Shown: positions 878-11,559 of the stretch, piece by piece | Position numbering within the stretch: position 1 is the first letter of the stretch | Layout: every line of letters begins with the position of its first letter | Assembly: GCA_051439425.1 (NCBI GenBank) | Contig: JBFRWD010000018.1 | Span: forward strand, 1 to 11,559 | DNA length: 11,559 nucleotides | DNA from: Synechococcus sp. | Lineage (GTDB): Bacteria > Cyanobacteriota > Cyanobacteriia > Thermostichales > PCC-7336 | Direction of reading: 5' to 3' | Translations under genes and position numbers: made by a program | The notes under the pieces: model-generated | The model's input: only the letters and a program-made list of their open reading frames with translations | Databases searched by the model: none | What the model was told of the DNA's origin: nothing

Positions 878-932
878 TACATAGTTTAGATAGTTACATC
901 TCTAGTGTCGCGATGGAAAATATAATTGTCAA
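878..932 (-). promoter_or_regulatory. Putative promoter/operator region of the RHH-primase operon
   Basis: TTGACA on minus at 932-927; weak -10 (GACACT) at 17-nt spacing; short direct repeats ATAGTT at 881-886 and 890-895. Confidence 0.35.
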
Positions 933-1735
933 GAGTTTCGCTCGCATGCTTTGCGAAACTGCTCGATATCTGAGTATCTGACTAGGCGATAAAGGTGAGG
1001 CTTTTGGGTGTGTGGCTTTACCCTTTGGATCCGATAGGGGAAGCGCTCGTAAGGCTTGTCGCTTCCATGCCGACTAAAATGCTGTGCAATCGCGCCCCTT
1101 TTCGGGCCGTCATCAGGATCTTTCGATTCAATGAACCTGACTATAGCTGCTAGCCTTCCGCTGTACTCTTCCTCAACAAGGGACGCTAGTTCCTCTAGAT
1201 CTTCTACTTTGTAAGTTGTGCCATCGGGCCTTCTAATGAGCACACCGTCACCAAGTCCTCCGATGATTCTGTGCCCTTGTGGGAGCGATTTGGGCAAGTC
1301 AAATGGATCGAATGTTTGGGCGTGAAGAGCACCTACACCAGTTTCTACAGCCTTTTCCACAGCAGCCTTTGAACCTTCCAATCCCCAGAGTTCAAAAACA
1401 GGCTGCGCTCTCCCCTGCTCTGCTGACTTGGCGATTTCATACGGGCCGCGCTTCCAACGATCCGTGCTTGGGAGCGGCTCGAAGCTCTTAATTGCTTCAA
1501 GATCTGAAGGACTCGGCTTTCTCCTCGGATCGTGAATATCAAACCATGCAAGGATTTCCGTGAGAGCCCCTTTATAGATTAGCTCCGACTGGGGCTGCGC
1601 CTTAATCCCAGCAGCCTTAGACAATTCTGCGATCGCTGCTTCGAGTTCAGCGATTCGCTCCTCTAATCCTTGCTTTCGGCTTGGCGGCTGCCTGTTCTCA
1701 TCCGAACCTGCGCTCTCCGGCGCTGATGCTTTTTT
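929..1735 (-). CDS. C-terminal frame of a frameshifted Xre fusion (linker + coiled coil + unknown domain + possible C-terminal winged helix)
   Basis: The 231-aa ORF (TTG 1624) lacks a well-spaced RBS, but its frame stays open upstream to 1735, reading KKASAPESAGSDENRQPPSRKQGLEERIAELEAAIAELSKAAG. It begins exactly at the A7 run inside xre. Confidence 0.7.
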   Translation of the reverse strand, partial: KKASAPESAGSDENRQPPSRKQGLEERIAELEAAIAELSKAAGIKAQPQSELIYKGALTEILAWFDIHDPRRKPSPSDLEAIKSFEPLPSTDRWKRGPYEIAKSAEQGRAQPVFELWGLEGSKAAVEKAVETGVGALHAQTFDPFDLPKSLPQGHRIIGGLGDGVLIRRPDGTTYKVEDLEELASLVEEEYSGRLAAIVRFIESKDPDDGPKRGAIAQHFSRHGSDKPYERFPYRIQRVKPHTQKPHLYRLVRYSDIEQFRKACERNS

Positions 1736-1953
1736 TCAAAGTCTTCGGCCTCCAAATCGCTGAATAGGTCAGAGACGGCACAACCCAGCGCCTCCGTCAG
1801 ACGATGTACTTTAACAATCCAATCCAGGCCAGCTTTGCCCTGTTCCCAATTTCGGATGCTCACCTCCGTAACACCAACTGCCTCAGCTAGCTCGCGCTGA
1901 GTTAGATTCGCTTCCTTTCGAAGCTCGCCAATTCTGCTCACGGGGATACCCAT
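1663..1953 (-). CDS. Xre/Cro-CI family HTH transcriptional repressor (96 aa in frame 0)
   Basis: IGELRKEANLTQRELAEAVGVTEVSIRNWEQG...LTEALGCAVSDLF is a canonical HTH_3 pattern; transcribed divergently from the promoter at 2001. Confidence 0.93.
   Translation of the reverse strand: MGIPVSRIGELRKEANLTQRELAEAVGVTEVSIRNWEQGKAGLDWIVKVHRLTEALGCAVSDLFSDLEAEDFEKKHQRRRAQVRMRTGSRQAESKD
1701..1753 (-). promoter_or_regulatory. Putative -1 programmed ribosomal frameshift signal
   Basis: Internal SD GGAGG (1753-1749), 13-nt spacer, in-frame heptamer A_AAA_AAG (1735-1729), 5-nt spacer, stem GCGC-CGGAGA-GCGC (1723-1710) whose loop CGGA can pair with downstream TTCG (1706-1703). Confidence 0.6.
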
Positions 1954-1967
1954 AGGTTTGTTGTACT

Positions 1968-2030
1968 AGAAATATATCGTAAATTTCTTTTCTTAAACTA
2001 TTGACACCACAAAGAAGTTTTCCGTACCAT
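1968..2030 (+). promoter_or_regulatory. Rightward sigma70 promoter and candidate repressor operators
   Basis: TTGACA (2001-2006), 18 nt, TACCAT (2025-2030). Inverted repeat AGAAAT-N9-ATTTCT at 1968-1988; imperfect inverted pair CGTAAATTTCTTT (1978-1990) / AAAGAAGTTTTCCG (2011-2024). Confidence 0.7.
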
Positions 2031-2079
2031 CAAGTCATCAGCCGGACGACGCTACATACCCGGCGAAAGGATTTCAAGC

Positions 2080-2526
2080 ATGCAACTCTCTACTTTCTCC
2101 CCCGAAACTACCAAGCGCGAACTGCTGGAGTTCTGCAAAGGTCGCGTTCTTGGCTACAGCAAGCACTCGAAGCAAGGCAAGGCTGCACTGCTTGCGTTCG
2201 TCAATCGTTGGATTGCTGCTGAGAGCGTTGACGAGTTGATCGATGACGTTGAGCCGTCTGTTAAATACCTGAAATCTAGGGATTTTGATCGGCAGCCTAC
2301 TGAAGCACCCGCACCGGTTGCTCCTACAGTCGCCGCCTACACCGTCTATCTCGCCACCATCGTGGTTGGAACGCTGATTCTGTGGCTGTTGGACATCCCG
2401 CTACTGGCGCTCAAGGTCTGGCGCTTTGCTCAGCAACAGTGGATCGATGTTCGGCTGCAGTTGCAGTACGTCGAGTGGCCGCAAGTTTGGCTGCCGGCGA
2501 TGCAACTCGCAATTGTCAACTGGTAG
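2080..2526 (+). CDS. Hypothetical protein with N-terminal Rho-N/HeH-like motif and C-terminal transmembrane helix
   Basis: RBS AAAGGA. TTKRELLEFCKGRVLGYSK..KQGKAALL resembles helix-extended-helix domains; hydrophobic segment VAAYTVYLATIVVGTLILWLLDIPLLAL. Confidence 0.7.
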   Translation: MQLSTFSPETTKRELLEFCKGRVLGYSKHSKQGKAALLAFVNRWIAAESVDELIDDVEPSVKYLKSRDFDRQPTEAPAPVAPTVAAYTVYLATIVVGTLILWLLDIPLLALKVWRFAQQQWIDVRLQLQYVEWPQVWLPAMQLAIVNW

Positions 2527-2587
2527 ATCGATGGGCCTGGGCACGCCTTGAAACTGTCCGATCACCCTCACACAAAGGAGCGATCAA

Positions 2588-3151
2588 ATGAATGAAATCA
2601 GCCCAAAAAGTTACACCCGCATCTTGGCCCTGGCTTGTGCCGCTCGGGACTGTTTTCCCCGCGACCGAGCACTGCAGTACGTCGAGCACCAGCTTTTGGG
2701 CGAGCACGATGCGTGGGGGATCTCAGCCGGTAGTGAGCTCCTGTGGGCTGAGCGGTTCGTAAAGGAAGCTGGACACCCCGAGTACTGGAATCTGTCAGAG
2801 GAAGAGCGGCCCACGTTTGAGGCGTTGTGCGGCGACTTCAAATCGATGATCGAGGGAGAGCACCCGATCCTTAGCCCAGGCAGGGTTGAGCTATTAGCAA
2901 ATCGAATGAGGGAGAAGGACAACGAGAACTACTTGAAGTTACTTCTCTGTGCTGGATATGCGCTCAGCCAGGAAACGTTCGAGGCAGTGAAGAGAGCGAC
3001 CGAGCGCGAGCTGGTTTTGCAGGGACACGACGAGACAACCGCGCATCACGCATCACTCTATTTCATACAGCTAGCCCGGTCCCCGAAGAAGTGGGACCTC
3101 ACAGAGGAAGAAATCGAGTGGGTTGAGGAGTTCGCTGAGTCGCTGGATTAA
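2588..3151 (+). CDS. Hypothetical protein with an internally duplicated helical domain (187 aa)
   Basis: RBS AAAGGAG; repeated motif FVKEAGHPEYWNLSEEE / FIQLARSPKKWDLTEEE. Confidence 0.8.
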   Translation: MNEISPKSYTRILALACAARDCFPRDRALQYVEHQLLGEHDAWGISAGSELLWAERFVKEAGHPEYWNLSEEERPTFEALCGDFKSMIEGEHPILSPGRVELLANRMREKDNENYLKLLLCAGYALSQETFEAVKRATERELVLQGHDETTAHHASLYFIQLARSPKKWDLTEEEIEWVEEFAESLD

Positions 3152-3258
3152 GAACGCAACGGGGCTGGCATCCCCTCACCACTGCTCCAAAGTCAAAAGC
3201 GACTACTGACCGTGCAAAGTACGTAGCCGCCTGTAAACCTAAACCAAGGTCTAGCCCA

Positions 3259-3474
3259 ATGGTACACACAACAACAGTCACAGTTCAGCAACTCATGTCA
3301 CCGGCAGAACGGGCCCAAGATGCCATCAAACTTGCCCGTAAGGCACTTAACGAAATGAGTTGGGCTGCTAGTGAAGGCGATCTAGTTGAGGCGCTAGGAC
3401 ACGAGTCAGAGGTTTCCTGTCAGCTGTCGCGATTGGAAGGAATCATCTGCAGGCTGACTTACAAACAGCAGTAG
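3259..3474 (+). CDS. Small helical hypothetical protein (71 aa)
   Basis: AAGG upstream of ATG; amphipathic helices; collinear with the operon. Confidence 0.65.
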   Translation: MVHTTTVTVQQLMSPAERAQDAIKLARKALNEMSWAASEGDLVEALGHESEVSCQLSRLEGIICRLTYKQQ

Positions 3475-3537
3475 CCTCGCAGTCCTTATCAGCGACGTTC
3501 TGTTCCTCATCACATCAAACTTTCAAGAGGTAAAGTC

Positions 3538-3747
3538 ATGACTAATAGCCAAGCAAAAACTACAGCAACTGTTCCCTTATCAGCTGAAGATACAAGGCTA
3601 CTGGCCGCAGCACTCTGCACTTTGCAAGCGGAGGGAGTAACACTGATCTTGTCGGAGGCCGAAACCGAGCAACTAACACAGAGACTCGGAATCAAGCTGA
3701 ATTTTGATGATGCGCTCGCGACTGCCGAGTCATTCGCAAAGTCGTAG
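3538..3747 (+). CDS. Small hypothetical protein (69 aa), paralog of 6761..7000
   Basis: RBS GAGG; 20/44 ungapped identities with the minus-strand ORF at 6761. Confidence 0.75.
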   Translation: MTNSQAKTTATVPLSAEDTRLLAAALCTLQAEGVTLILSEAETEQLTQRLGIKLNFDDALATAESFAKS

Positions 3748-3786
3748 CCGTTCGCTATGAATGGTTAAGGGTCTGCGCCGAACCAT

Positions 3787-3836
3787 TAACCGGCTTACGG
3801 CAATGCTTACGGTACCTCAGTCTGGGGTACCGGTTA
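3787..3836 (+). other. Stem-loop after the early operon (possible terminator or RNA structure)
   Basis: GGTACCTCAG-T-CTGGGGTACC (3811-3831, one G-U pair); alternative pairing TAACCGG (3787)/CCGGTTA (3830); GCTTACGG direct repeat. Confidence 0.4.
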
Positions 3837-4365
3837 CTCGGCCCTCTACTGTGCCAAGCTGCTTTAATTCCCCAGGATGCAGGCATTTTTCTACATCCAA
3901 GCTTCGCAATGAACTAAATTCAAAGCAGAAATCATTATCCTTTTCTCAAGAGAGTATAGGTTTACTCCTGACAAGCAATTTAGCTGTCTGGTGCCTGACA
4001 AACATAATGCAAACTGTATGTGGAACCAACCTCTCTTCAATTCCCATTACTCAATACAGCATTGAAAATTCTGTGAAATCGTAGAGTTCCCATGACTGAC
4101 TGTTCGATTAGTGAATAATACGATTTCCTCTTTCTTGAAAGTTGCGTGTATTTTCGGACAGCCCATCCGAAGACTTTGGGGAATCGTAACGTATCACTAC
4201 ACTCCTTATCCGTTTGATCTGCTTGGTCTCTTGCAATCCCTTTTGCCCATAGACTGTAGGTAAGTGGTGCCTGAGTGGACTTTTTCAGTTCTATTCTATT
4301 TCTCCGGGCAACGTGCATCTTTGTTCCATTGCTCATGAGAATGTCTTGCGATCGAGCTACTAACC

Positions 4366-4890
4366 ATGGCAACCAAGAACACGTACCAAAATACTCTCAA
4401 AAAAGATTTTGGCATCAACAAGAATATCTCTGAGGCACTGACCGAAGAGCAATGTAAAGAATTACTGGAACGTCTTCAGAACGATGACGGTACTCTGAAT
4501 CTGGTCAGGTCTTTTATCGGCAAGAACAAAGAATTGTCGAAAAATAACAGTCAATACGGACGCCAACGAGAAGACGCCAAGAGAAAGTTAGAGGCCCTGA
4601 GAATTGAGTTTGATAATTATAAAGCTGCCGATGATGGGGGTAAGGAGACAGTCCCTGTAGAGCTGACCGAAGATATGAAGGCCCTGCAGGATGAAAACAC
4701 ACAGCTGAAGCTTGAGCTGTCAGCTTTAAAAGCCAATAATGATGATTTGATGCGCGACAACAGACACTTATCCAATCTTGTAAATCTCATCAAGCTTAGA
4801 ACGACCCAAGGCATCAGAAAAATGATTTCTGGGCCAGACTCAGAGGTCAAAAGGGAGCTAGCAAAATTTCTTGAATCCACTTTAGGGTGA
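4366..4890 (+). CDS. Coiled-coil protein (174 aa), gene 1 of the three-gene HNH operon
   Basis: Long ORF with heptads (LQDENTQLKLELSALKANNDDLMRDNRHLSNLV); its stop overlaps the next start (GTGA). Confidence 0.85.
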   Translation: MATKNTYQNTLKKDFGINKNISEALTEEQCKELLERLQNDDGTLNLVRSFIGKNKELSKNNSQYGRQREDAKRKLEALRIEFDNYKAADDGGKETVPVELTEDMKALQDENTQLKLELSALKANNDDLMRDNRHLSNLVNLIKLRTTQGIRKMISGPDSEVKRELAKFLESTLG

Positions 4891-5306
4891 GGCTTGACGG
4901 CATCGTGGCAAAAGCGAAGCGCACATACAGGGGAATGAGTTATCGCGAAGTACAGCGATCAAACTCTACATCACGCTCCCAGCTCTCAATGGAGCTGCAA
5001 AAAGAACTTAAGCACAACAGTTTTAGAAACGTGGGGTGGGATAACGTCATTGCTCTACATAACGAGATTGCTCGAATGCTTCACCTAGAGAGCATGTCTC
5101 TTGAAGAGCTCTACCTAGAAGCAGACCGAGTTGGCAATAAGTATTTGTCGAAGCAAGAGATAGCCTCTCACCGCCAGGCATTAGCCATAGAAGTTGATGC
5201 CATATCCCAAACACTTGATGAACTCTACCCTGCTGGCCCGCGAGAAGAGATCGACTTTTCAAAGACAGCTAGTACTGGCCGTTCTCGCAGAAGGGCTAGA
5301 CAATAA
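4887..5306 (+). CDS. Helical hypothetical protein (139 aa), gene 2 of the three-gene HNH operon
   Basis: Coupled on both sides (GTGA, TAATG); carries SLEELYLEADRVGNKY, also present in the HNH N-terminus. Confidence 0.85.
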   Translation: MRLDGIVAKAKRTYRGMSYREVQRSNSTSRSQLSMELQKELKHNSFRNVGWDNVIALHNEIARMLHLESMSLEELYLEADRVGNKYLSKQEIASHRQALAIEVDAISQTLDELYPAGPREEIDFSKTASTGRSRRRARQ

Positions 5307-5767
5307 TGAAAAATGACATTGATTTCGAAAACTTGTCTATTCAGGAGCTGTATCAAGCAGCGTCTCGGATTGGCAATAAACGCTACCATCGTTTGACAAC
5401 AAAGGATTTGGAGGACTACCGCCAGTACGAGAAGTGGCGGTATATCTGCGGTCAGAGTGAATGTGGAACCACCAGAGAAAGCCAAGAGTGGGTCAGAAGG
5501 CATTCAAGCCACTATTGCCCTGTCTGTGACCTGGCCTATCAGCGGAGCAGGGGCAGAAGTATTGACCACAAGTTGCCCCGAGCCAAATACCCCTGGCTGT
5601 CACTAAACTTCGATAATTTCTGGGTCATCTGTAGACACTGTAACCGTGAAAAGGGAGAAATGGATTGGCTAGAATACGAACATTTCATCTTCACCGAGCG
5701 TGAGCACCTCTATCCGCTAATCAGAAGTCAGCGCCCTTCAATCCTTCTTAGAAACCTCGCGACTTAA
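5306..5767 (+). CDS. Zn-binding HNH endonuclease (153 aa), gene 3 of the operon
   Basis: CPVC...SIDHKLPRAKYP...DNFWVICRHCNREKG: CxxC/CxxC zinc knuckle with D-H...N...N catalytic pattern. Confidence 0.92.
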   Translation: MKNDIDFENLSIQELYQAASRIGNKRYHRLTTKDLEDYRQYEKWRYICGQSECGTTRESQEWVRRHSSHYCPVCDLAYQRSRGRSIDHKLPRAKYPWLSLNFDNFWVICRHCNREKGEMDWLEYEHFIFTEREHLYPLIRSQRPSILLRNLAT

Positions 5768-5807
5768 GAATTGGCCAGCACATTTATGGCTGTTCCAGAC
5801 TGCAAAT

Positions 5808-5975
5808 GAGAGTGTTGACTCTCCTTCAATTCACTTGAGATTCGTTGATGGCAGTTCGGCTTGAAATCCCAAAGCCTCTTAGCCACAGGACTAAGATAAT
5901 CCCGAGCTCCGGATTCAGGGCTTGGGGTATGTTGCGATCACTCCCCGCTTGCTTTCAGCAAGCTCAGATATCTGA
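5808..5975 (+). other. Cluster of tandem hairpins downstream of the HNH gene (structured 3' UTR, ncRNA or terminators)
   Basis: Stems at 5808-5823, 5858-5876, 5877-5896, 5899-5928 (with G-U pairs favouring +), 5947-5963 and 5964-5975. Confidence 0.35.
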
Positions 5976-5979
5976 AACC

Positions 5980-6108
5980 TCAGTGGCAATGATAAGGCTG
6001 GCTTCCTGCATGACATCCCTGATTGTTAGTTCCCCCTGAATGGGATAACGACGGGCTTGCGAAGGCAAGAAAAGCTAAGGGTAGTAAGACTATGATGATG
6101 GCTTTCAT
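5980..6108 (-). CDS. Secreted YHYH-domain-type His/Cys peptide, 42 aa. Not in the ORF track
   Basis: MKAIIIVLLPLAFLAFASPSLS|HSGGTNNQGCHAGSQPYHCH: Sec signal peptide followed by the H-S-G-G-T...G-C-H...Y-H-C-H motif of YHYH-domain proteins; GGAG upstream. Confidence 0.85.
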   Translation of the reverse strand: MKAIIIVLLPLAFLAFASPSLSHSGGTNNQGCHAGSQPYHCH

Positions 6109-6222
6109 TCCTGCAACTCCAGTAACTGCACATCACCTCTTCTCTATTCTTCTAAAGGTGCTTTCATTTAGCAATTCTGGATTGCACAGTATTAGGGATT
6201 CCCAGTATTTTACTTCTCACTA

Positions 6223-6245
6223 AACTCCCTAGATCCAAGGGAGTT
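6223..6245. promoter_or_regulatory. Inverted repeat AACTCCC-N9-GGGAGTT between divergent genes
   Basis: Same arms and spacing as 683-705. Confidence 0.45.
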
Positions 6246-6300
6246 AGATCTCTGCTGCGTTGTCAATCCATTCCTACCAGTGAAGAGCTGCGGGAATACG

Positions 6301-6651
6301 ATGACCAGCAATCTAGAACGCCAATTCGAGTCACTGTGGCTTGAACTCTATCCAAGCATCGACCTTCACTCAGAGCACCGATTCCACCCCGTCAGACGTT
6401 GGCGATTCGACTATGCCCATCTGCCCAGCAAGACCGCTATCGAGCTTGAAGGTGGCGTCTATAGCCGTGGTAGACACTCTAGAGGCAAAGGGTTCGTGAA
6501 CGACTGCGAGAAGTACCTGCACGCTGCTGCAATGGGCTGGACTGTGTGCCGGTTAGCTACTGGGATGGTGAACGCTGACAACTTGCGGCTAGTGGCTGAA
6601 GCGATTGAGATTAGGCCGCCTGTGCTGTTCGATTGTCGATGGTGTCGGTAA
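6301..6651 (+). CDS. Phage PD-(D/E)XK-superfamily (DUF559/Vsr-like) endonuclease
   Basis: EHRFHPVRRWRFDYAH...IELEGGVYSRGRH...GFVNDCEKY..A...GWTVCR is typical of this phage family. ATG 6301 is preferred over GTG 6280. Confidence 0.85.
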   Translation: MTSNLERQFESLWLELYPSIDLHSEHRFHPVRRWRFDYAHLPSKTAIELEGGVYSRGRHSRGKGFVNDCEKYLHAAAMGWTVCRLATGMVNADNLRLVAEAIEIRPPVLFDCRWCR

Positions 6652-6760: not shown

Positions 6761-7000
6761 CTACTTCCCCACCAAATCCTCCAGAATCGTGACTGCATCA
6801 TCCAGTGCCATCGTGCCGCCTAGCCCGTCTGCTAGCTGTTGGCGTTGCGTGTCAGACAACTTCAGTAGCACGCCTTCAGTTTGGAGTGTGAGCAAAGCTG
6901 CCGTGGCTTCCTGACGTCTGACTAGCGCCTCGCTGCAGATCTCCTCGGTCAAGTAGTGCAGTCTGAGTCGGTCGCTCTCCTTGCGGGTGGTTGCCTTCAA
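6761..7000 (-). CDS. Small hypothetical protein, paralog of 3538..3747 (start uncertain)
   Basis: TAALLTLQTEGVLLKLSDTQRQQLADGLGGTMALDDA aligns without gaps to the 3538 protein; TTG at 7000 overlaps the upstream TGA. Confidence 0.55.
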   Translation of the reverse strand: MKATTRKESDRLRLHYLTEEICSEALVRRQEATAALLTLQTEGVLLKLSDTQRQQLADGLGGTMALDDAVTILEDLVGK

Positions 7001-8367
7001 CAGTCGTTTTCTCGCCGATACCAACTGTAGTTACAAAGTTCTTCTGGCGAGAGTTTGTCGATGTGAATCATTCCTGCTGCTTCAAAGTCAAAGTCCTGAT
7101 CGGGGAAGTGATCGACCGTGTAGTCGTTATACACAGCCCTCTCCCAAATAGTGGGGCAGGGATGAACCCATCCATTGTCAAAAGCTGTTTGAATCTCTCG
7201 ATCGCTGAAATCCGGGTTACTGCCCTTGTAAATCTCGAGGCAGATTTCCTCTGATGAGTTTTCCTCGGTTGTATAACTCACCCCACTGAAGTCTGCGTCC
7301 TGAAGGTTGGCGCCAGACAGGTATGCGTCCTGAAGGTTGGCGAAAGCCAGGTCTGCGTCTTGAAGGTTGGCGAAAGACAGGTATGCGTCCTGAAGATTGG
7401 CTTCTAACAGGTCTGCGTCTTGAAGGTTGGTTTGTGGCAGGTCTGCGTCTTGAAGGTTGACTTGTAAGAGGTTTGCGTCTTGAAGGTTGACTTGTAACAG
7501 GTATGCGTCCTGAAGGTTGGCTTGTAACAGGTTTGCGTCTTGAAGGTTGGCGAAAGACAGGTCTGAGCCGGGTAGTTGTAGATCGCGTAGGAATGCCCCC
7601 GTACCTGGGAGCGCCCTGCCTGTATCACCGTCAAGCGCAACATCTAAACCCGCAAGACTTTGAGGTGATTGTCGAATAATGCAACTTAGATATTCACCAC
7701 CTCTTCGACAAAACCAAGGAAATCGCCACGGTCGTGACACCAAAAATTCGAGCGCCTCTTTCCTCCCCCCATTCCCCGATTGCCCTGACGCGCTAGTGAT
7801 GGTCTACCAAGCAGTAAACACATCTTGTTCGTGTCGAATATCCTGATTGGCAATGAATGAGATAACGGCGATAGCAATACCCACGCTACCCACTACTTCA
7901 AAGATTTCGAAAATCGCGAGACTTTTGAACCAGCGCAATGCAGCTTCGAGTATTCTTTCAACCCTGACAAACGGCCCCGTAACTGGAGCAACCTCACTCC
8001 TTAGCTGACGCTCGGCTGTGACCCAGTAGTATTCGTCTCGCCCCTCTTGGCGACCATCTATATCCCATAGGAATTTTGCCCGTTCTGCAATCAAGCGGTG
8101 TGTATCTTCGGGCCGGTACCTATTTGGGGGAGGGGCTCCCTCTGCTAATCGCTTCTGTACTTCAGCTTCTGGTCCCCAGTATTTGCGGCCACCATATCGG
8201 TTATCTCTAACGGTGCGCTCTACCCATCGCTGGAAGGGCGTTCTCCCGTCTTTGTCTTTGAACTGCGTCAAGACTTCAGATTCGGGGTCCCAGTACTTGC
8301 AACCGCCATCGTTGTATCGATGGACTATATTGCTGCTGTCTTTCGGGTAGCGTTTGTCGGCTGACAT
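6997..8367 (-). pseudogene. DUF2934-like + TM + pentapeptide-repeat protein (456 codons) split by one in-frame TAG at 7806-7804
   Basis: ORFs 7804..8367 and 6997..7743 are in the same frame. Read-through gives FTAW*TITSASGQSGNGGRKEALEFLVSRPWRFPWFC versus paralog LAAWQTITSAAEEPGSGGRIEALEFLNSRPWRFPWFC. IAERAKFLWDIDGRQEGRDEYYWVTAERQL matches the DUF2934 pattern. Confidence 0.85.
7281..7563 (-). repeat. Coding tandem repeat, about nine 30-nt units (xNLQDAxLxx)
   Basis: Recurrent TGCGTC(C/T)TGAAGGTTG on + every 30 nt. Confidence 0.9.
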
Positions 8368-8938: not shown

Positions 8939-10501
8939 ATGGATCCAACCGACACCACCTCTAAGCAACAGAGAAGGCGAGTTGCCCACCAGTTATACGT
9001 TAACCGTTCGCTGAGCAGCCAACCGGGCAATCAAGATGGAGACTGGGAAAAAGCCGAATGGCTGCAGGAAAGACCGGGCAAGCTGGTGTTGTTCCGTCTG
9101 AACAGCCGATTGATATGGATGGAGAAGCGATGGATAGAACCCTGCGATCGCTTTCTCCAAAAAGCCGCATTGCTGCACATTCTGAGTCTTGTCAGCTCAA
9201 TCAGTATCCTTCTAGCCATTGGATCGTTTGTGGTAGGCCAGGACTTTCGGCATGACAAGGAAGTATTGGCGGCATGGCAGACCATCACTAGTGCAGCAGA
9301 AGAGCCGGGCAGCGGAGGGCGGATCGAGGCTCTGGAGTTTCTGAATTCAAGGCCTTGGCGTTTTCCCTGGTTTTGTAGCAGAAGGCAGGACTATGAGGAC
9401 CTGAAATGCTTCATCCGACAGCCACGACAAAGCCTTAGAAATTTAGATTTAAGCGTAGATGAGGACTCAGCTGGGAGCGCTTATCTATTTGGAGTGCGAT
9501 TGCATCATTCCGATCTTGTTGCCGCTAATCTCACTAGGGCAGACTTCAGAGAAGCAGACCTCACTGGGGCTGACCTCACTAAGGCTGACCTCACTAGGGT
9601 ATACCTCGTTAGGGCAAAGCTCATTAGGGCAAACCTTACTGGGGCTAACCTCTTTAGGGCTGACCTCACTGGGGTATACCTTACTGGGGCAAACCTTACT
9701 GGGGCATACCTCACTGGGGCATACCTTACTGAGGCAGACCTCGTTAGGGCAAAGCTCATTAGGGCATACCTCATTGGAACAGACCTCACTGGGGCTGACC
9801 TCACTGGAGCTGACCTCACTGGAGCTGGCCTTAATGAGGCAAACCTCACTGGAGCTGACCTTAATGAGGCAAACCTCATTGGGGCAAACCTCACTGGAGC
9901 TGACCTTAATAAGGCAAACCTCACTGGAGCTGACCTTAATGAGGCAAACCTCATTGGGGCAAACCTCTCAGAGGCAAACCTTAATGAGGCAAACCTCATT
10001 GGGGCAAACCTCATTGGGGCAAACCTCTCAGAGGCAAACCTTAATGAGGCAAACCTCATTGGGGCAAACCTCTCAAAAGCAAACCTCTCAGAAGCAAACC
10101 TCAATGGAACTGGGGCAAACCTCAATGGAACTGGGGCTGACCTCACTGGGGCTGACCTCAGGGGGGCTGACCTCAGGGGGGCAAACCTCACTGGGGCAAA
10201 CCTCACTGGGGCTGACTTAAGAGAGGCAAACCTCACAGGAGCAAACCTCATTGGAGCAGAAGACCTCTCAGAGATAAACCTCTATGCGGCAAAATTCAGG
10301 GGGGAATACCTCACAGAGGAATACCTCACAGAGGAATACCTCACTAGGGCAAATTTTGAAGGGACATCCCTCGCTATGGCAAATCTCACCAACATCCTTT
10401 ACAACGACCAAACCATGTGGCCCGACGGCTTCGACCCACCAGAATCCTGCAGCATTGATGACCAAAATCCGCCCATAGATTCAGCAGATTGCACCGACTA
10501 G
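8939..10501 (+). CDS. Membrane-anchored pentapeptide-repeat protein (520 aa) with DUF2934-like N-terminus
   Basis: RRRVAHQLYVNR...GNQDGDWEKAE; TM LLHILSLVSSISILLAIGSFVVG; long A(D/N)LxG tract; C-cap ILYNDQTMWPDGFDP. Confidence 0.93.
   Translation: MDPTDTTSKQQRRRVAHQLYVNRSLSSQPGNQDGDWEKAEWLQERPGKLVLFRLNSRLIWMEKRWIEPCDRFLQKAALLHILSLVSSISILLAIGSFVVGQDFRHDKEVLAAWQTITSAAEEPGSGGRIEALEFLNSRPWRFPWFCSRRQDYEDLKCFIRQPRQSLRNLDLSVDEDSAGSAYLFGVRLHHSDLVAANLTRADFREADLTGADLTKADLTRVYLVRAKLIRANLTGANLFRADLTGVYLTGANLTGAYLTGAYLTEADLVRAKLIRAYLIGTDLTGADLTGADLTGAGLNEANLTGADLNEANLIGANLTGADLNKANLTGADLNEANLIGANLSEANLNEANLIGANLIGANLSEANLNEANLIGANLSKANLSEANLNGTGANLNGTGADLTGADLRGADLRGANLTGANLTGADLREANLTGANLIGAEDLSEINLYAAKFRGEYLTEEYLTEEYLTRANFEGTSLAMANLTNILYNDQTMWPDGFDPPESCSIDDQNPPIDSADCTD
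9510..10392 (+). repeat. Coding 15-nt tandem repeat (pentapeptide A[DN]L[TNIS][GER])
   Basis: GCAAACCTCACTGGG/GCTGACCTCACTGGA-type units; it also explains the repetitive shadow ORFs at 9459 (+) and 9505 (-). Confidence 0.95.
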
Positions 10502-10537
10502 CCCCTCTGCCCGACTTCGCAATCCAACAGTTGTACT

Positions 10538-10750
10538 GGCTCTGTCACACTAACTGGCAAGTAGTCTGAGCTGGAAGAAAAAGGAGATGGATAATCGACC
10601 CGTTTCCTTATTCTCGTCACCGCTTTTCAGCCGTAGTCATCAGTTACGCAGCCTGGCTCTACGATCGCACCTGCTTGAGCTACCGGGATGTGGAGGAACT
10701 CCTGGAACGGCGAGGCATAGCAGTTAGCTGCGAGACGGCTTTGTCACACA
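10538..10750 (+). mobile_element. IS6-family remnant: left end, truncated frameshifted transposase N-terminus, second IS6-like end
   Basis: GGCTCTGTCACACTAAC at 10538; ATG 10587 then +1 frame from 10609 YSRHRFSAVVISYAAWLYDRTCLSYRDVEELLERRGIAVSCET (IS6 HRF...WLY...LSYRDVEELLxERG motif); cut by GGCTTTGTCACACA at 10737. Confidence 0.85.
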
Positions 10751-10820
10751 GCTATTTGAGACCGCGAATGCTCGGATCTGCGCTGTCGACATTAAGGCTC
10801 CAACGCTTGCAGGGACGCCG

Positions 10821-11352
10821 TTAATTCAGAACGGCGTCCTCATCCTCATCGACGAAATCCGGCACAGCCTCCACTATCTGAATCTTCAGGGGGACTTGCT
10901 CGGGTTGCGTCTTGTAGAAACCACGGTGACGGCATAGTTTCTCAAGTGCTGCTAGCTTGTCGTGAAGCTTGACTTCAACGACCCTAACCGTGCCATCTGC
11001 TGTCTCCGTCTCACGCATTGTTACGCGCTGTACGGCGATCGCACTTTCCTGGGATAGCTCACTGCTGGACTTCACAACTATGCCGTTGTTATCCCAACTC
11101 ACTACATCAGTAATCCTGGAGAAGGCTATCGCCGTTAGCTCGCTAATGATGCTGTCTATGCTGACCTTGTTTCGCTCTCTGATCGCAGCCCATTCCTTCG
11201 AAAGAGCGGCTCCAACGTTAGCATTAGCTAGCAATCTAGCTGCAGTTACTTTTGCCGAGCCTGGCGCGTAACCAGCCCTAATCGCCGCTTGAGCACCGTT
11301 GAAGTCGAGCGGAAACTCCTCAATCCTGAGTCACTCGACTTCGGCAGGCCAT
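10821..11352 (-). pseudogene. terS: Terminase small subunit with disrupted 5' end
   Basis: The frame upstream of TTG 11234 reads IEEFPLDFNGAQAAIRAGYAPGSAKVTAARLLANANV (TerS HTH signature), then ELTAIAFS...VKLHDKLAALEKL. In-frame TGA at 11333; nearest ATG (11352, MACRSRVTQD*) is out of frame. Confidence 0.8.
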
Positions 11353-11559
11353 TCACATCAACTTCGGCACCCAAATCTCAACAACTTCAGCAGGGTGCAA
11401 TCGGTCATGGCGACAAGCAATATCCCCATAGTACGAATTACGGAGCAAAGCGACGATAGTTTGATTCATGAAGTAGTCGCCTCGTGAGGCTGTTGTAGTG
11501 GGCTGGTGAGCTTGCGCATCGACTCTCCCGTCAGTGAAAGACGCAAAGAATCGTGGACA

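Follow-up and report, generated by a model that had tools for sequence, protein, structure and literature searches.

We describe a regulator gene split between two reading frames on contig JBFRWD010000018.1 (hereafter C18) of a Synechococcus sp. metagenome-assembled genome (MAG; GCA_051439425.1; 182 contigs, 4.8 Mb, 96% complete). The window, that is, the whole stretch of DNA analyzed, is this entire contig of 11,559 bp. On its minus strand, a short open reading frame (ORF) with a helix-turn-helix (HTH) domain meets a longer ORF in the −1 frame at a run of seven adenines (A7), which forms the slippery heptamer A_AAA_AAG. An initial annotation had presented the locus as a phage-type repressor with a full −1 ribosomal frameshift cassette giving a short and a long protein; we discuss the features of the locus, the explanations that can account for them, and the known systems that they resemble. 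The features of the split gene, in its direction of reading, are as follows:

1663 to 1953, minus strand: zero-frame ORF of 96 amino acids (aa), from ATG 1953 to the stop TAG at 1665–1663, with an HTH at about residues 7–66 and a 21-aa Arg-rich tail past the slip site.
1749 to 1753, minus strand: GGAGG, a pentamer like a Shine–Dalgarno (SD) sequence, inside the codons for part of L-E-A.
1729 to 1736, minus strand: the A7 run (1736–1730, then G) and the heptamer A_AAA_AAG (1735–1729); codons 73–75 read GAA AAA AAG.
1710 to 1723, minus strand: hairpin GCGC-CGGAGA-GCGC, 5 nucleotides (nt) 3′ of the heptamer, with four G-C pairs, a 6-nt loop, and −4.8 kcal/mol, which is background level.
929 to 1735, minus strand: −1 frame of 268 codons plus stop, with an Ala/Ser/Pro/Glu linker (residues 3–23), a leucine zipper (residues 24–42), and an ORFan domain of about 225 aa.
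1610 to 1666, minus strand: zipper segment LEERIAELEAAIAELSKAA, with L24, I28, L31, I35, and L38 at 4-3-4-3 spacing and a predicted helix at residues 20–41.
1652 to 1663, minus strand: GAGG (1663–1660), 5 nt, and an in-frame ATC (1654–1652), a candidate start beside the stop TAG.
1622 to 1624, minus strand: TTG, the first canonical start of the −1 frame, from which gene callers obtain 231 aa; it has no SD and would lose 4 of the 5 zipper core positions.

The arrangement of the two frames can be read directly from the sequence. The 96-aa ORF holds A_AAA_AAG in frame at 1735–1729, and the −1 frame opens at the same site, where TGA (1738–1736) is followed by AAA AAA GCA and by an open frame of 268 codons up to the stop at 931–929. 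The long form, estimated initially at about 341 aa, has exactly that length (75 + 266 = 341 aa) and the junction ...DFEKKASAPESAG. The heptamer is the sole X_XXZ_ZZN site in the 73-nt overlap of the two frames. It occurs in frame 22 times in the 1607 long ORFs of the genome, so the motif itself is not rare.

Is the A7 run real? In Logan, an independent contig (2059 nt, depth 13.1) spans 1245–3303 with 0 differences and 0 gaps. The comparison draws on the same reads and on contigs, in which rare variants are hidden; the agreement excludes an assembler slip, not a minority allele. No indel in 929–1953 is listed for the contigs of the run, and none of them carries A8. Across the genome, a split ORF pattern is found at 4 of the 477 A7 runs, compared with 0.5% of 47,824 random positions. 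A7 runs are thus split at the background rate, which means that homopolymer errors are not widespread in the MAG. These results bear on the simplest explanation of the locus, a sequencing or assembly artefact in which the true run is A8 and the gene is contiguous: the MAG has a depth of only about 13×, and its evidence consists of contigs, not raw reads; set against this, a second assembler yields an identical contig over the site and A7 splits are no more frequent than expected. We regard an artefact as very unlikely, and the observation of a split HTH gene at A7 is partly confirmed.

The N-terminal part of the gene belongs to well-known families. The 96-aa ORF matches Pfam HTH_3 (PF01381; E 7.4e-10, 39.2 bits against a cut-off of 23), is also above cut-off for HTH_31 (37.8 against 27) and HTH_26 (28.9 against 22), with matches that reach residues 59–65, and matches the PHROG family phrog_3, “transcriptional repressor” (4.3e-12). 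The NCBIfam model couple_hipB (E 7.4e-10, 38.6 bits, below its cut-off of 71.65) and the N-termini of RmrA (PADLOC, no cut-off given) are matched through the HTH only. Among 13 loci, the relative with the highest identity across most of its length (41%) is a 77-aa stand-alone protein on an Argonema contig; longer relatives of the HTH ORF were looked for and none was found. The ATG at 1953 has no SD, and the HTH gene is possibly leaderless, as is lambda cI.

The protein encoded by the −1 frame (hereafter the C-part) combines a recognizable helix with a domain of no known family. Its 268 codons contain no ATG, a property shared by 3.4% of 268-codon windows in long ORFs. The coiled-coil stretch LEERIAELEAAIAEL lies upstream of TTG 1624, as stated initially, and runs into it. 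The helix at residues 20–41 spans this TTG (DSSP on a low-confidence AlphaFold2 single-sequence model with a pLDDT, or predicted local distance difference test, of 40.2), and a start there would therefore behead the helix. The zipper segment gives weak coiled-coil hints in Pfam (E 0.1–2), and a homodimer prediction for residues 12–75 scored 0.02, which is uninformative in either direction.

Searches for relatives of the C-part returned the protein itself. A phmmer search against 1.84 billion representatives and a word search of 5.8 billion clusters gave self-matches only; there was no relative in viral contigs or in any of 6 family genomes, and a sample of about 400 genomes of the phylum yielded two chance-level hits, of which the one inspected was rplF. 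A metagenome DNA pattern that allowed any run of 6–10 nt at the tract recovered no relative, and a match from a metagenome protein scan was rejected as a pattern artefact in an unrelated 78-aa ORF. The C-part has no family in Pfam, PHROGs, NCBIfam, or PADLOC, no PDB relative, and no usable ESM Atlas hit; the best match in Pfam, NCBIfam, and PADLOC is Cas8c (E 0.023), and no known toxin family was matched in Pfam, NCBIfam, or PADLOC. Residues 131–210 weakly resemble ribosomal protein uL6 (phmmer against PDB, E 0.16), and rplF is likewise the best six-frame hit in the phylum (E 0.001 per genome); this likeness, the only recurring hint for the ORFan domain, is probably due to chance.

Does the locus hold one gene or two? 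The 13 codons at 1663–1625, which lie upstream of the TTG, encode LEERIAELEAAIAE and, together with L38 (the TTG itself), complete the zipper positions. Their codon log-likelihood ratio (LLR), trained on the 1607 long ORFs, is +5.4, where true coding windows average +2.7; of stop-free windows, about 0.1% of the off-frame and 0.7% of the antisense ones score this high. Because both coding signal and zipper extend upstream of TTG 1624, the locus probably represents one split gene, not two; two genes that include the zipper would need a start at ATC 1654.

The two-gene explanation has several points in its favor. It holds that a 96-aa Xre regulator or antitoxin is followed in one operon by an ORFan gene for a toxin, exclusion, or defence protein, that the A7 run is coincidental, and that translation of the second gene uses either TTG 1624 or a non-canonical start, ATC 1654 behind GAGG, possibly through termination–reinitiation at the TAG (1665–1663). 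The rexAB genes behind lambda cI provide an example of an exclusion- or defence-type arrangement. The closest HTH relative found, at 41% identity, is a stand-alone protein and no longer one was found; the HTH matches antitoxin-type models, below their cut-offs (couple_hipB); gene callers give the 231-aa protein from the TTG; and an SD-like GAGGAG lies at the zero-frame stop in a genome where many genes, the HTH gene included, have no SD. Ordinary gene junctions with runs of A7 to A9 also exist elsewhere in the genome (contigs C41, C92, C138, and C98). The initial annotation had called the TTG poor in ribosome-binding signals. It does lack an SD; the point is weak as an argument, given that the ATG of the HTH gene lacks one as well.

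Against two genes stand the 13 coding-like codons upstream of the TTG (P about 0.001–0.007), which hold 4 of the 5 zipper core residues. There is no ATG, GTG, or TTG in the −1 frame between 1735 and 1625, and ATC start codons are very rare. An ATG lies within about 70 nt of the upstream stop in 7 of 13 judgeable junctions outside insertion sequences (IS), and none does in the C18 frame. An A7 run would fall in the 73-nt overlap by chance in about 0.4% of cases (an estimate from 477 A7 runs in 9.6 Mb of strands), and the coincidence must also supply the phase, the −1 direction, and GGAGG. In addition, no toxin or defence family matches the C-part. Taken as a whole, two genes are improbable.

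If the gene is one, what joins its frames? In bacterial frameshifting, SD-like elements are stimulatory at a spacing of about 10–14 nt from the heptamer; in dnaX, the spacing is 10 nt. At the C18 locus, GGAGG is present at 1753–1749, 13 nt 5′ of the heptamer as first reported. In random coding positions of the long ORFs of the genome, GGAGG is found 8–16 nt upstream in 1.07% of cases and 10–14 nt upstream in 0.59%; of the 54 in-frame A6[A/G] motifs that the 1607 long ORFs contain, not one is preceded by it at this spacing. The anti-SD was assumed, as the 3′ end of the 16S was not found in the MAG. GGAGG also lies 9 nt before a TTG in the +1 frame (1739–1737), and a 13-codon mini-ORF there (1698–1753, minus strand) is read as MKKSISAGERRFG; this would be an alternative, trivial role for GGAGG.

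The layout claimed at the outset is right: the ORF has an HTH and an in-frame A_AAA_AAG, GGAGG stands at a distance like that of dnaX and IS elements, the site is where the −1 frame opens, and a zipper precedes TTG 1624. The claim of a GC stem with pseudoknot potential is not confirmed as it was stated: the stem has 4 bp and −4.8 kcal/mol, and inspection by eye found no loop complement downstream. For the 40 nt that follow the heptamer, the folding energy is −10.1 kcal/mol (z −1.27), a value matched by 11% of shuffles and by 19% of natural coding 40-mers of the genome, and a 121-nt fold at the site has a z of 0.02. To speak of a full cassette of dnaX or IS911 design was thus an overstatement, as heptamer and SD are present and the 3′ element is at background.

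The tRNA set of the MAG comprises 38 tRNAs, with one tRNA-Lys(UUU) and no Lys(CUU). In a complete genome of the same genus, the best 5 of 11 matches to the tRNA-Lys gene were one Lys(UUU), followed by Arg, Met, Gly, and Ser/Pro, with no Lys(CUU) among them. An excerpt of PMC5009743 attributes the shiftiness of A_AAA_AAG in E. coli to the presence of a single tRNA-Lys. Excerpts of two further studies give rates: in vitro, deletion of the dnaX hairpin lowers frameshifting from 84% to 20% and mutation of the SD leaves 50% (PMC5389563), and A_AAA_AAG by itself causes more than 0.1% frameshifting in E. coli (PMC4066793). With 20% in dnaX without a hairpin and more than 0.1% at a lone heptamer, some long form is probably made at the C18 locus, whether the slip is programmed or the product of a mutation.

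The same genome offers other joints at A or T runs for comparison. An IS3-like element (C81:608–1383; HTH_Tnp_1 and HTH_21) has AGGAG, 11 nt, A7, and a −1 joint, with a 60-nt stem of z −2.0; 2 IS630-like elements (C77:39488–40530 and C112:1230–2101; HTH and DDE_3, with domains confirmed by Pfam) have −1 joints at A8. All three are recoding sites of the classical kind. With 3 IS elements that have −1 joints at A7 or A8 and tRNA-Lys(UUU) as the only tRNA-Lys found, two mechanistic preconditions for recoding are present. A different case is a STAND NTPase gene (C43:10145–12527) with a +1 split at a T7 run. Its upstream frame has 441 aa (weak HTH_3 and NACHT) and its downstream frame 375 aa (NCH2), with the first ATG 742 nt in; this NACHT/NCH2 split is probably a genuine frameshift mutation or an error.

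Programmed −1 recoding at A_AAA_AAG, with a small share for slippage by RNA polymerase, is the reading that we favor, and we do so tentatively, at somewhat less than an even chance. Several considerations count for it. The break falls precisely on the domain boundary, and it has the slippery phase, which chance would provide in 1 of 3 cases. GGAGG stands where chance would put it at only about 1% of sites, in a manner that mirrors the IS3 cassette of the genome itself. The −1 frame looks coding upstream of its first canonical start, and three IS elements of the genome have −1 joints at A7 or A8. The locus also lies in the context of a mobile-element regulator, with a sole tRNA-Lys and no A8 among the contigs. 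The data do not separate such a slippage signal from the loss of one base from A8, and the loss is about as likely. The interpretation as programmed frameshifting is possible, unproven, and was in part overstated at first.

Several points weigh against programmed recoding. The 24 intact sense-strand A8 runs in the 1607 long ORFs could each give exactly this picture on loss of one A, and the split at T7 in C43 occurred without any recoding rationale. In a survey of predicted frame-shifted genes, 4302 of 206,991 fell into the programmed class, most of them transposases, according to the excerpt of PMC3711429 consulted. No 3′ stimulator rises above background at the site in the 40-nt and 121-nt folds. 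GGAGG was picked out after stimulators had been sought, and looser 4-mer SD cores raise the background to 8.2%. Over the 22-codon overlap, the zero frame has a codon score of −0.76 and the −1 frame one of −2.87, so the frames are not separated and the −1 frame is not favored. The missing Lys(CUU) was not found with a tRNA-Lys(UUU) query and is not proven absent, and the tRNA set of the MAG is incomplete. Finally, the one computational test generally accepted for programmed recoding, that heptamer and frame split are conserved, depends on relatives, and none of the C-part was found in the collections searched.

Many of these points are shared by the main rival, an ordinary mutation, which we hold to be a serious contender that itself falls short of an even chance. 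Here, an ancestral 341-aa gene with GAA AAA AAA GCA (A8) lost one A by replication slippage, and the locus is a recent pseudogene or a phase-variable tract; its product would chiefly be the truncated 96-aa HTH protein, with long form arising solely from unselected leakiness of the A run. In addition to the frequency of A8 runs in intact genes, the C43 split, the survey finding that most frame-shifted genes are not programmed, and the background-level 3′ structure, this explanation accommodates features of the frames themselves. The zero-frame tail HQRRRAQVRMRTGSRQAESKD appears to resemble what an Ala/Ser/Pro/Gly linker gives when read out of frame, the first zero-frame stop is reached after 21 codons, a typical off-frame distance, and a fully open 268-codon frame suits a recent event. 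It does not readily explain GGAGG at a stimulatory distance, expected at only about 1% of such sites, nor the precise coincidence of the break with the domain boundary, nor its slippery phase. No A8 variant is among the contigs of the run, although contigs drop rare variants. Furthermore, in lambda-type CI repressors, loss of the oligomerisation part is normally counter-selected in the lysogen, and the same would be expected of a prophage repressor at this locus.

The candidate targets of the regulator lie directly upstream of it, in a divergent intergenic region:

1954 to 2079, no strand assigned: divergent intergenic region with a promoter-like site and inverted repeats, identified as consensus and repeat matches only.
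2001 to 2030, plus strand: promoter-like TTGACA-18-TACCAT, facing the gene string at 2080–6651; one such site was found where 1.1 are expected.
1968 to 1976 and 1980 to 1988, no strand assigned: inverted repeats AGAAATATA and TAAATTTCT, candidate operators.
1981 to 1990 and 2011 to 2020, no strand assigned: inverted repeats AAATTTCTTT and AAAGAAGTTT, candidate operators.

This region is AT-rich, and its two inverted repeats overlap and surround TTGACA-18-TACCAT. Together with the PHROG repressor families and with genes for terminase, HNH nuclease, and primase–helicase on the contig, the divergent promoter-like site and its repeats make the label “phage-type repressor” plausible.

The contig as a whole points in the same direction. 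C18 holds a small terminase subunit, an HNH nuclease, a primase/helicase fragment, and pentapeptide-repeat proteins (Pfam, PHROG), and by this content it appears therefore to be phage-like and incomplete. The ORFs at 527–889, 2080–2526, 2588–3151, and 3259–4084, which make up most of the ORFs of the contig, have no Pfam or PHROG family, and the first three have no relative among IMG/VR viral contigs; judged by sequence comparison, the element in its entirety differs from catalogued phages. Its tetranucleotide composition falls within the lowest 4% among equal-sized pieces of the genome. The window contains no Rfam family and no tRNA gene, and the sole sequencing run that contains the locus is labeled marine sediment metagenome.

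A few further observations concern the ends of the contig and its pentapeptide-repeat genes. The latter lie at 6997–7743 (minus strand, 248 aa) and 8939–10501 (plus strand, 520 aa). Depth rises from about 12 to 40–118 over 9500–11559, with numerous joints and loose ends, which suggests repeats common to other organisms or loci in the sample. At 1–351, within the primase/helicase-like fragment, the sole listed contig has 811 nt and a depth of 20, differs by 5 mismatches and 3 nt missing at 316, and extends past the left end of the window; these features suggest either a related strain or another copy of the element.

If the slip is programmed, a single regulator gene would be read in two frames. 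Standard decoding would yield the 96-aa HTH-only protein. A ribosome with the two Lys codons of A_AAA_AAG in its P and A sites would slip back by one base; the single tRNA-Lys(UUU) would decode both codons, and pairing of GGAGG with the anti-SD would aid the slip without a strong 3′ structure. The slipped ribosomes would produce the 341-aa protein, in which the HTH is followed by a flexible linker of about 20 aa, a leucine zipper of 2.5 heptads, and the ORFan C-domain of about 225 aa. In a minor variant, RNA polymerase would slip on A7 and add one A, with the same protein as the result. By analogy with an SD and heptamer without a hairpin in E. coli, slip efficiency may be low to moderate, about 1–20%.

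The two products could then act on the same promoter. The long form may dimerise through its zipper and C-domain and repress the divergent promoter at 2001–2030, which would drive 2080–6651, by binding the inverted repeats at 1968–1988 and 1981–2020 that flank or overlap it. The short form, in excess and without the zipper, would be unable to dimerise, and may be a weak binder, a half-site competitor, or inert. Slip efficiency would set a fixed ratio of short to long form, as in OrfA and OrfAB of IS3-family elements (PMC5009743, in excerpt). Extended to the whole element, this model describes a temperate or satellite-like element that sets the ratio of a monomeric HTH to a zipper-dimerising repressor by SD-stimulated, structure-independent −1 frameshifting, such that OrfA/OrfAB logic serves as a lysis–lysogeny or immunity switch, with a C-domain of a fold not seen before. 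In this extended form, the model is rather doubtful.

Known systems provide precedents for parts of this model. In IS3-family elements, a short HTH ORF can regulate alone; its fusion to a longer −1 ORF takes place at an A-rich heptamer, often with an SD-like element about 10–13 nt upstream, and the zero frame ends shortly past the heptamer (PMC5009743, in excerpt). The OrfA–OrfAB pairs of IS911, IS3, and IS150 thus share with the C18 locus the HTH ORF, the A-rich heptamer, the SD-like element, and the early zero-frame stop. They differ in that the C-part of C18 is not a transposase and in that no 3′ stem rises above background, whereas the IS3-like element of the same genome has its 60-nt stem. 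InsA–InsAB′ of IS1 is a further −1 frameshifting comparator. An IS of the IS3, IS630, or IS1 type was itself considered for the C18 locus and rejected: there is no DDE/rve match, the one 12-nt inverted pair is not terminal, and the sequence is single-copy in the genome.

The E. coli dnaX gene, which produces tau and gamma, has the same A_AAA_AAG with an SD-like element before it, and tRNA-Lys(UUU) is likewise the only tRNA-Lys (PMC5389563 and PMC5009743, both in excerpt). In dnaX, the product of the shift is the short form and a strong hairpin gives most of the stimulation; in C18, it is the long form that depends on the shift, and the hairpin is negligible. A precedent from a mobile-element regulator is FseA, encoded by the symbiosis integrative and conjugative element (ICE) of Mesorhizobium, a master regulator that is made only by frameshifting across two ORFs (msi172–msi171), as described in the excerpt of PMC5009743. 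Like the reading favored for C18, FseA is a transcriptional regulator of a mobile element made through frameshifting; unlike it, FseA involves a +1 shift, activates excision, and belongs to another protein family, and that excerpt does not present its upstream ORF, taken alone, as an HTH repressor.

In terms of architecture, the nearest counterparts are the repressors lambda CI, 434, and P22 C2, which share with C18 an N-terminal HTH of Cro/CI type, a flexible linker, a C-terminal oligomerisation part, and a divergent early operon with inverted repeats between. In contrast to these, no S24 or other known C-domain was found in the C18 protein, and the first rightward gene is not an HTH Cro. A cleavable repressor of the lambda-CI/LexA type was rejected, as the 268-aa part has no S24 peptidase match (Pfam, E up to 10). 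A type II toxin–antitoxin system with an Xre antitoxin (HipBA, Xre-RES, or RosmerTA) was rejected as well: the C-part is in no toxin family and the NCBIfam match of the HTH is below cut-off. A frameshift-dependent CI-like phage repressor was not found in a limited literature search that covered titles and abstract openings only.

Whether the slip is programmed or the result of a mutation, gene callers mis-annotate the locus as two genes, one of 96 aa and one of 231 aa whose TTG start lies within a helix. Should it be a mutation, the locus is an ordinary broken regulator in a cryptic element, and a warning that losses from A8 to A7 automatically create perfect “dnaX-type” heptamers. If it is programmed, the gene would encode a CI-like regulator of immunity that needs recoding to yield its active form, with IS OrfA/OrfAB and the ICE activator FseA as the nearest precedents, and the element would possess a simple way, coupled to translation by the host, to fix the ratio of a DNA-binding competitor to the full repressor.

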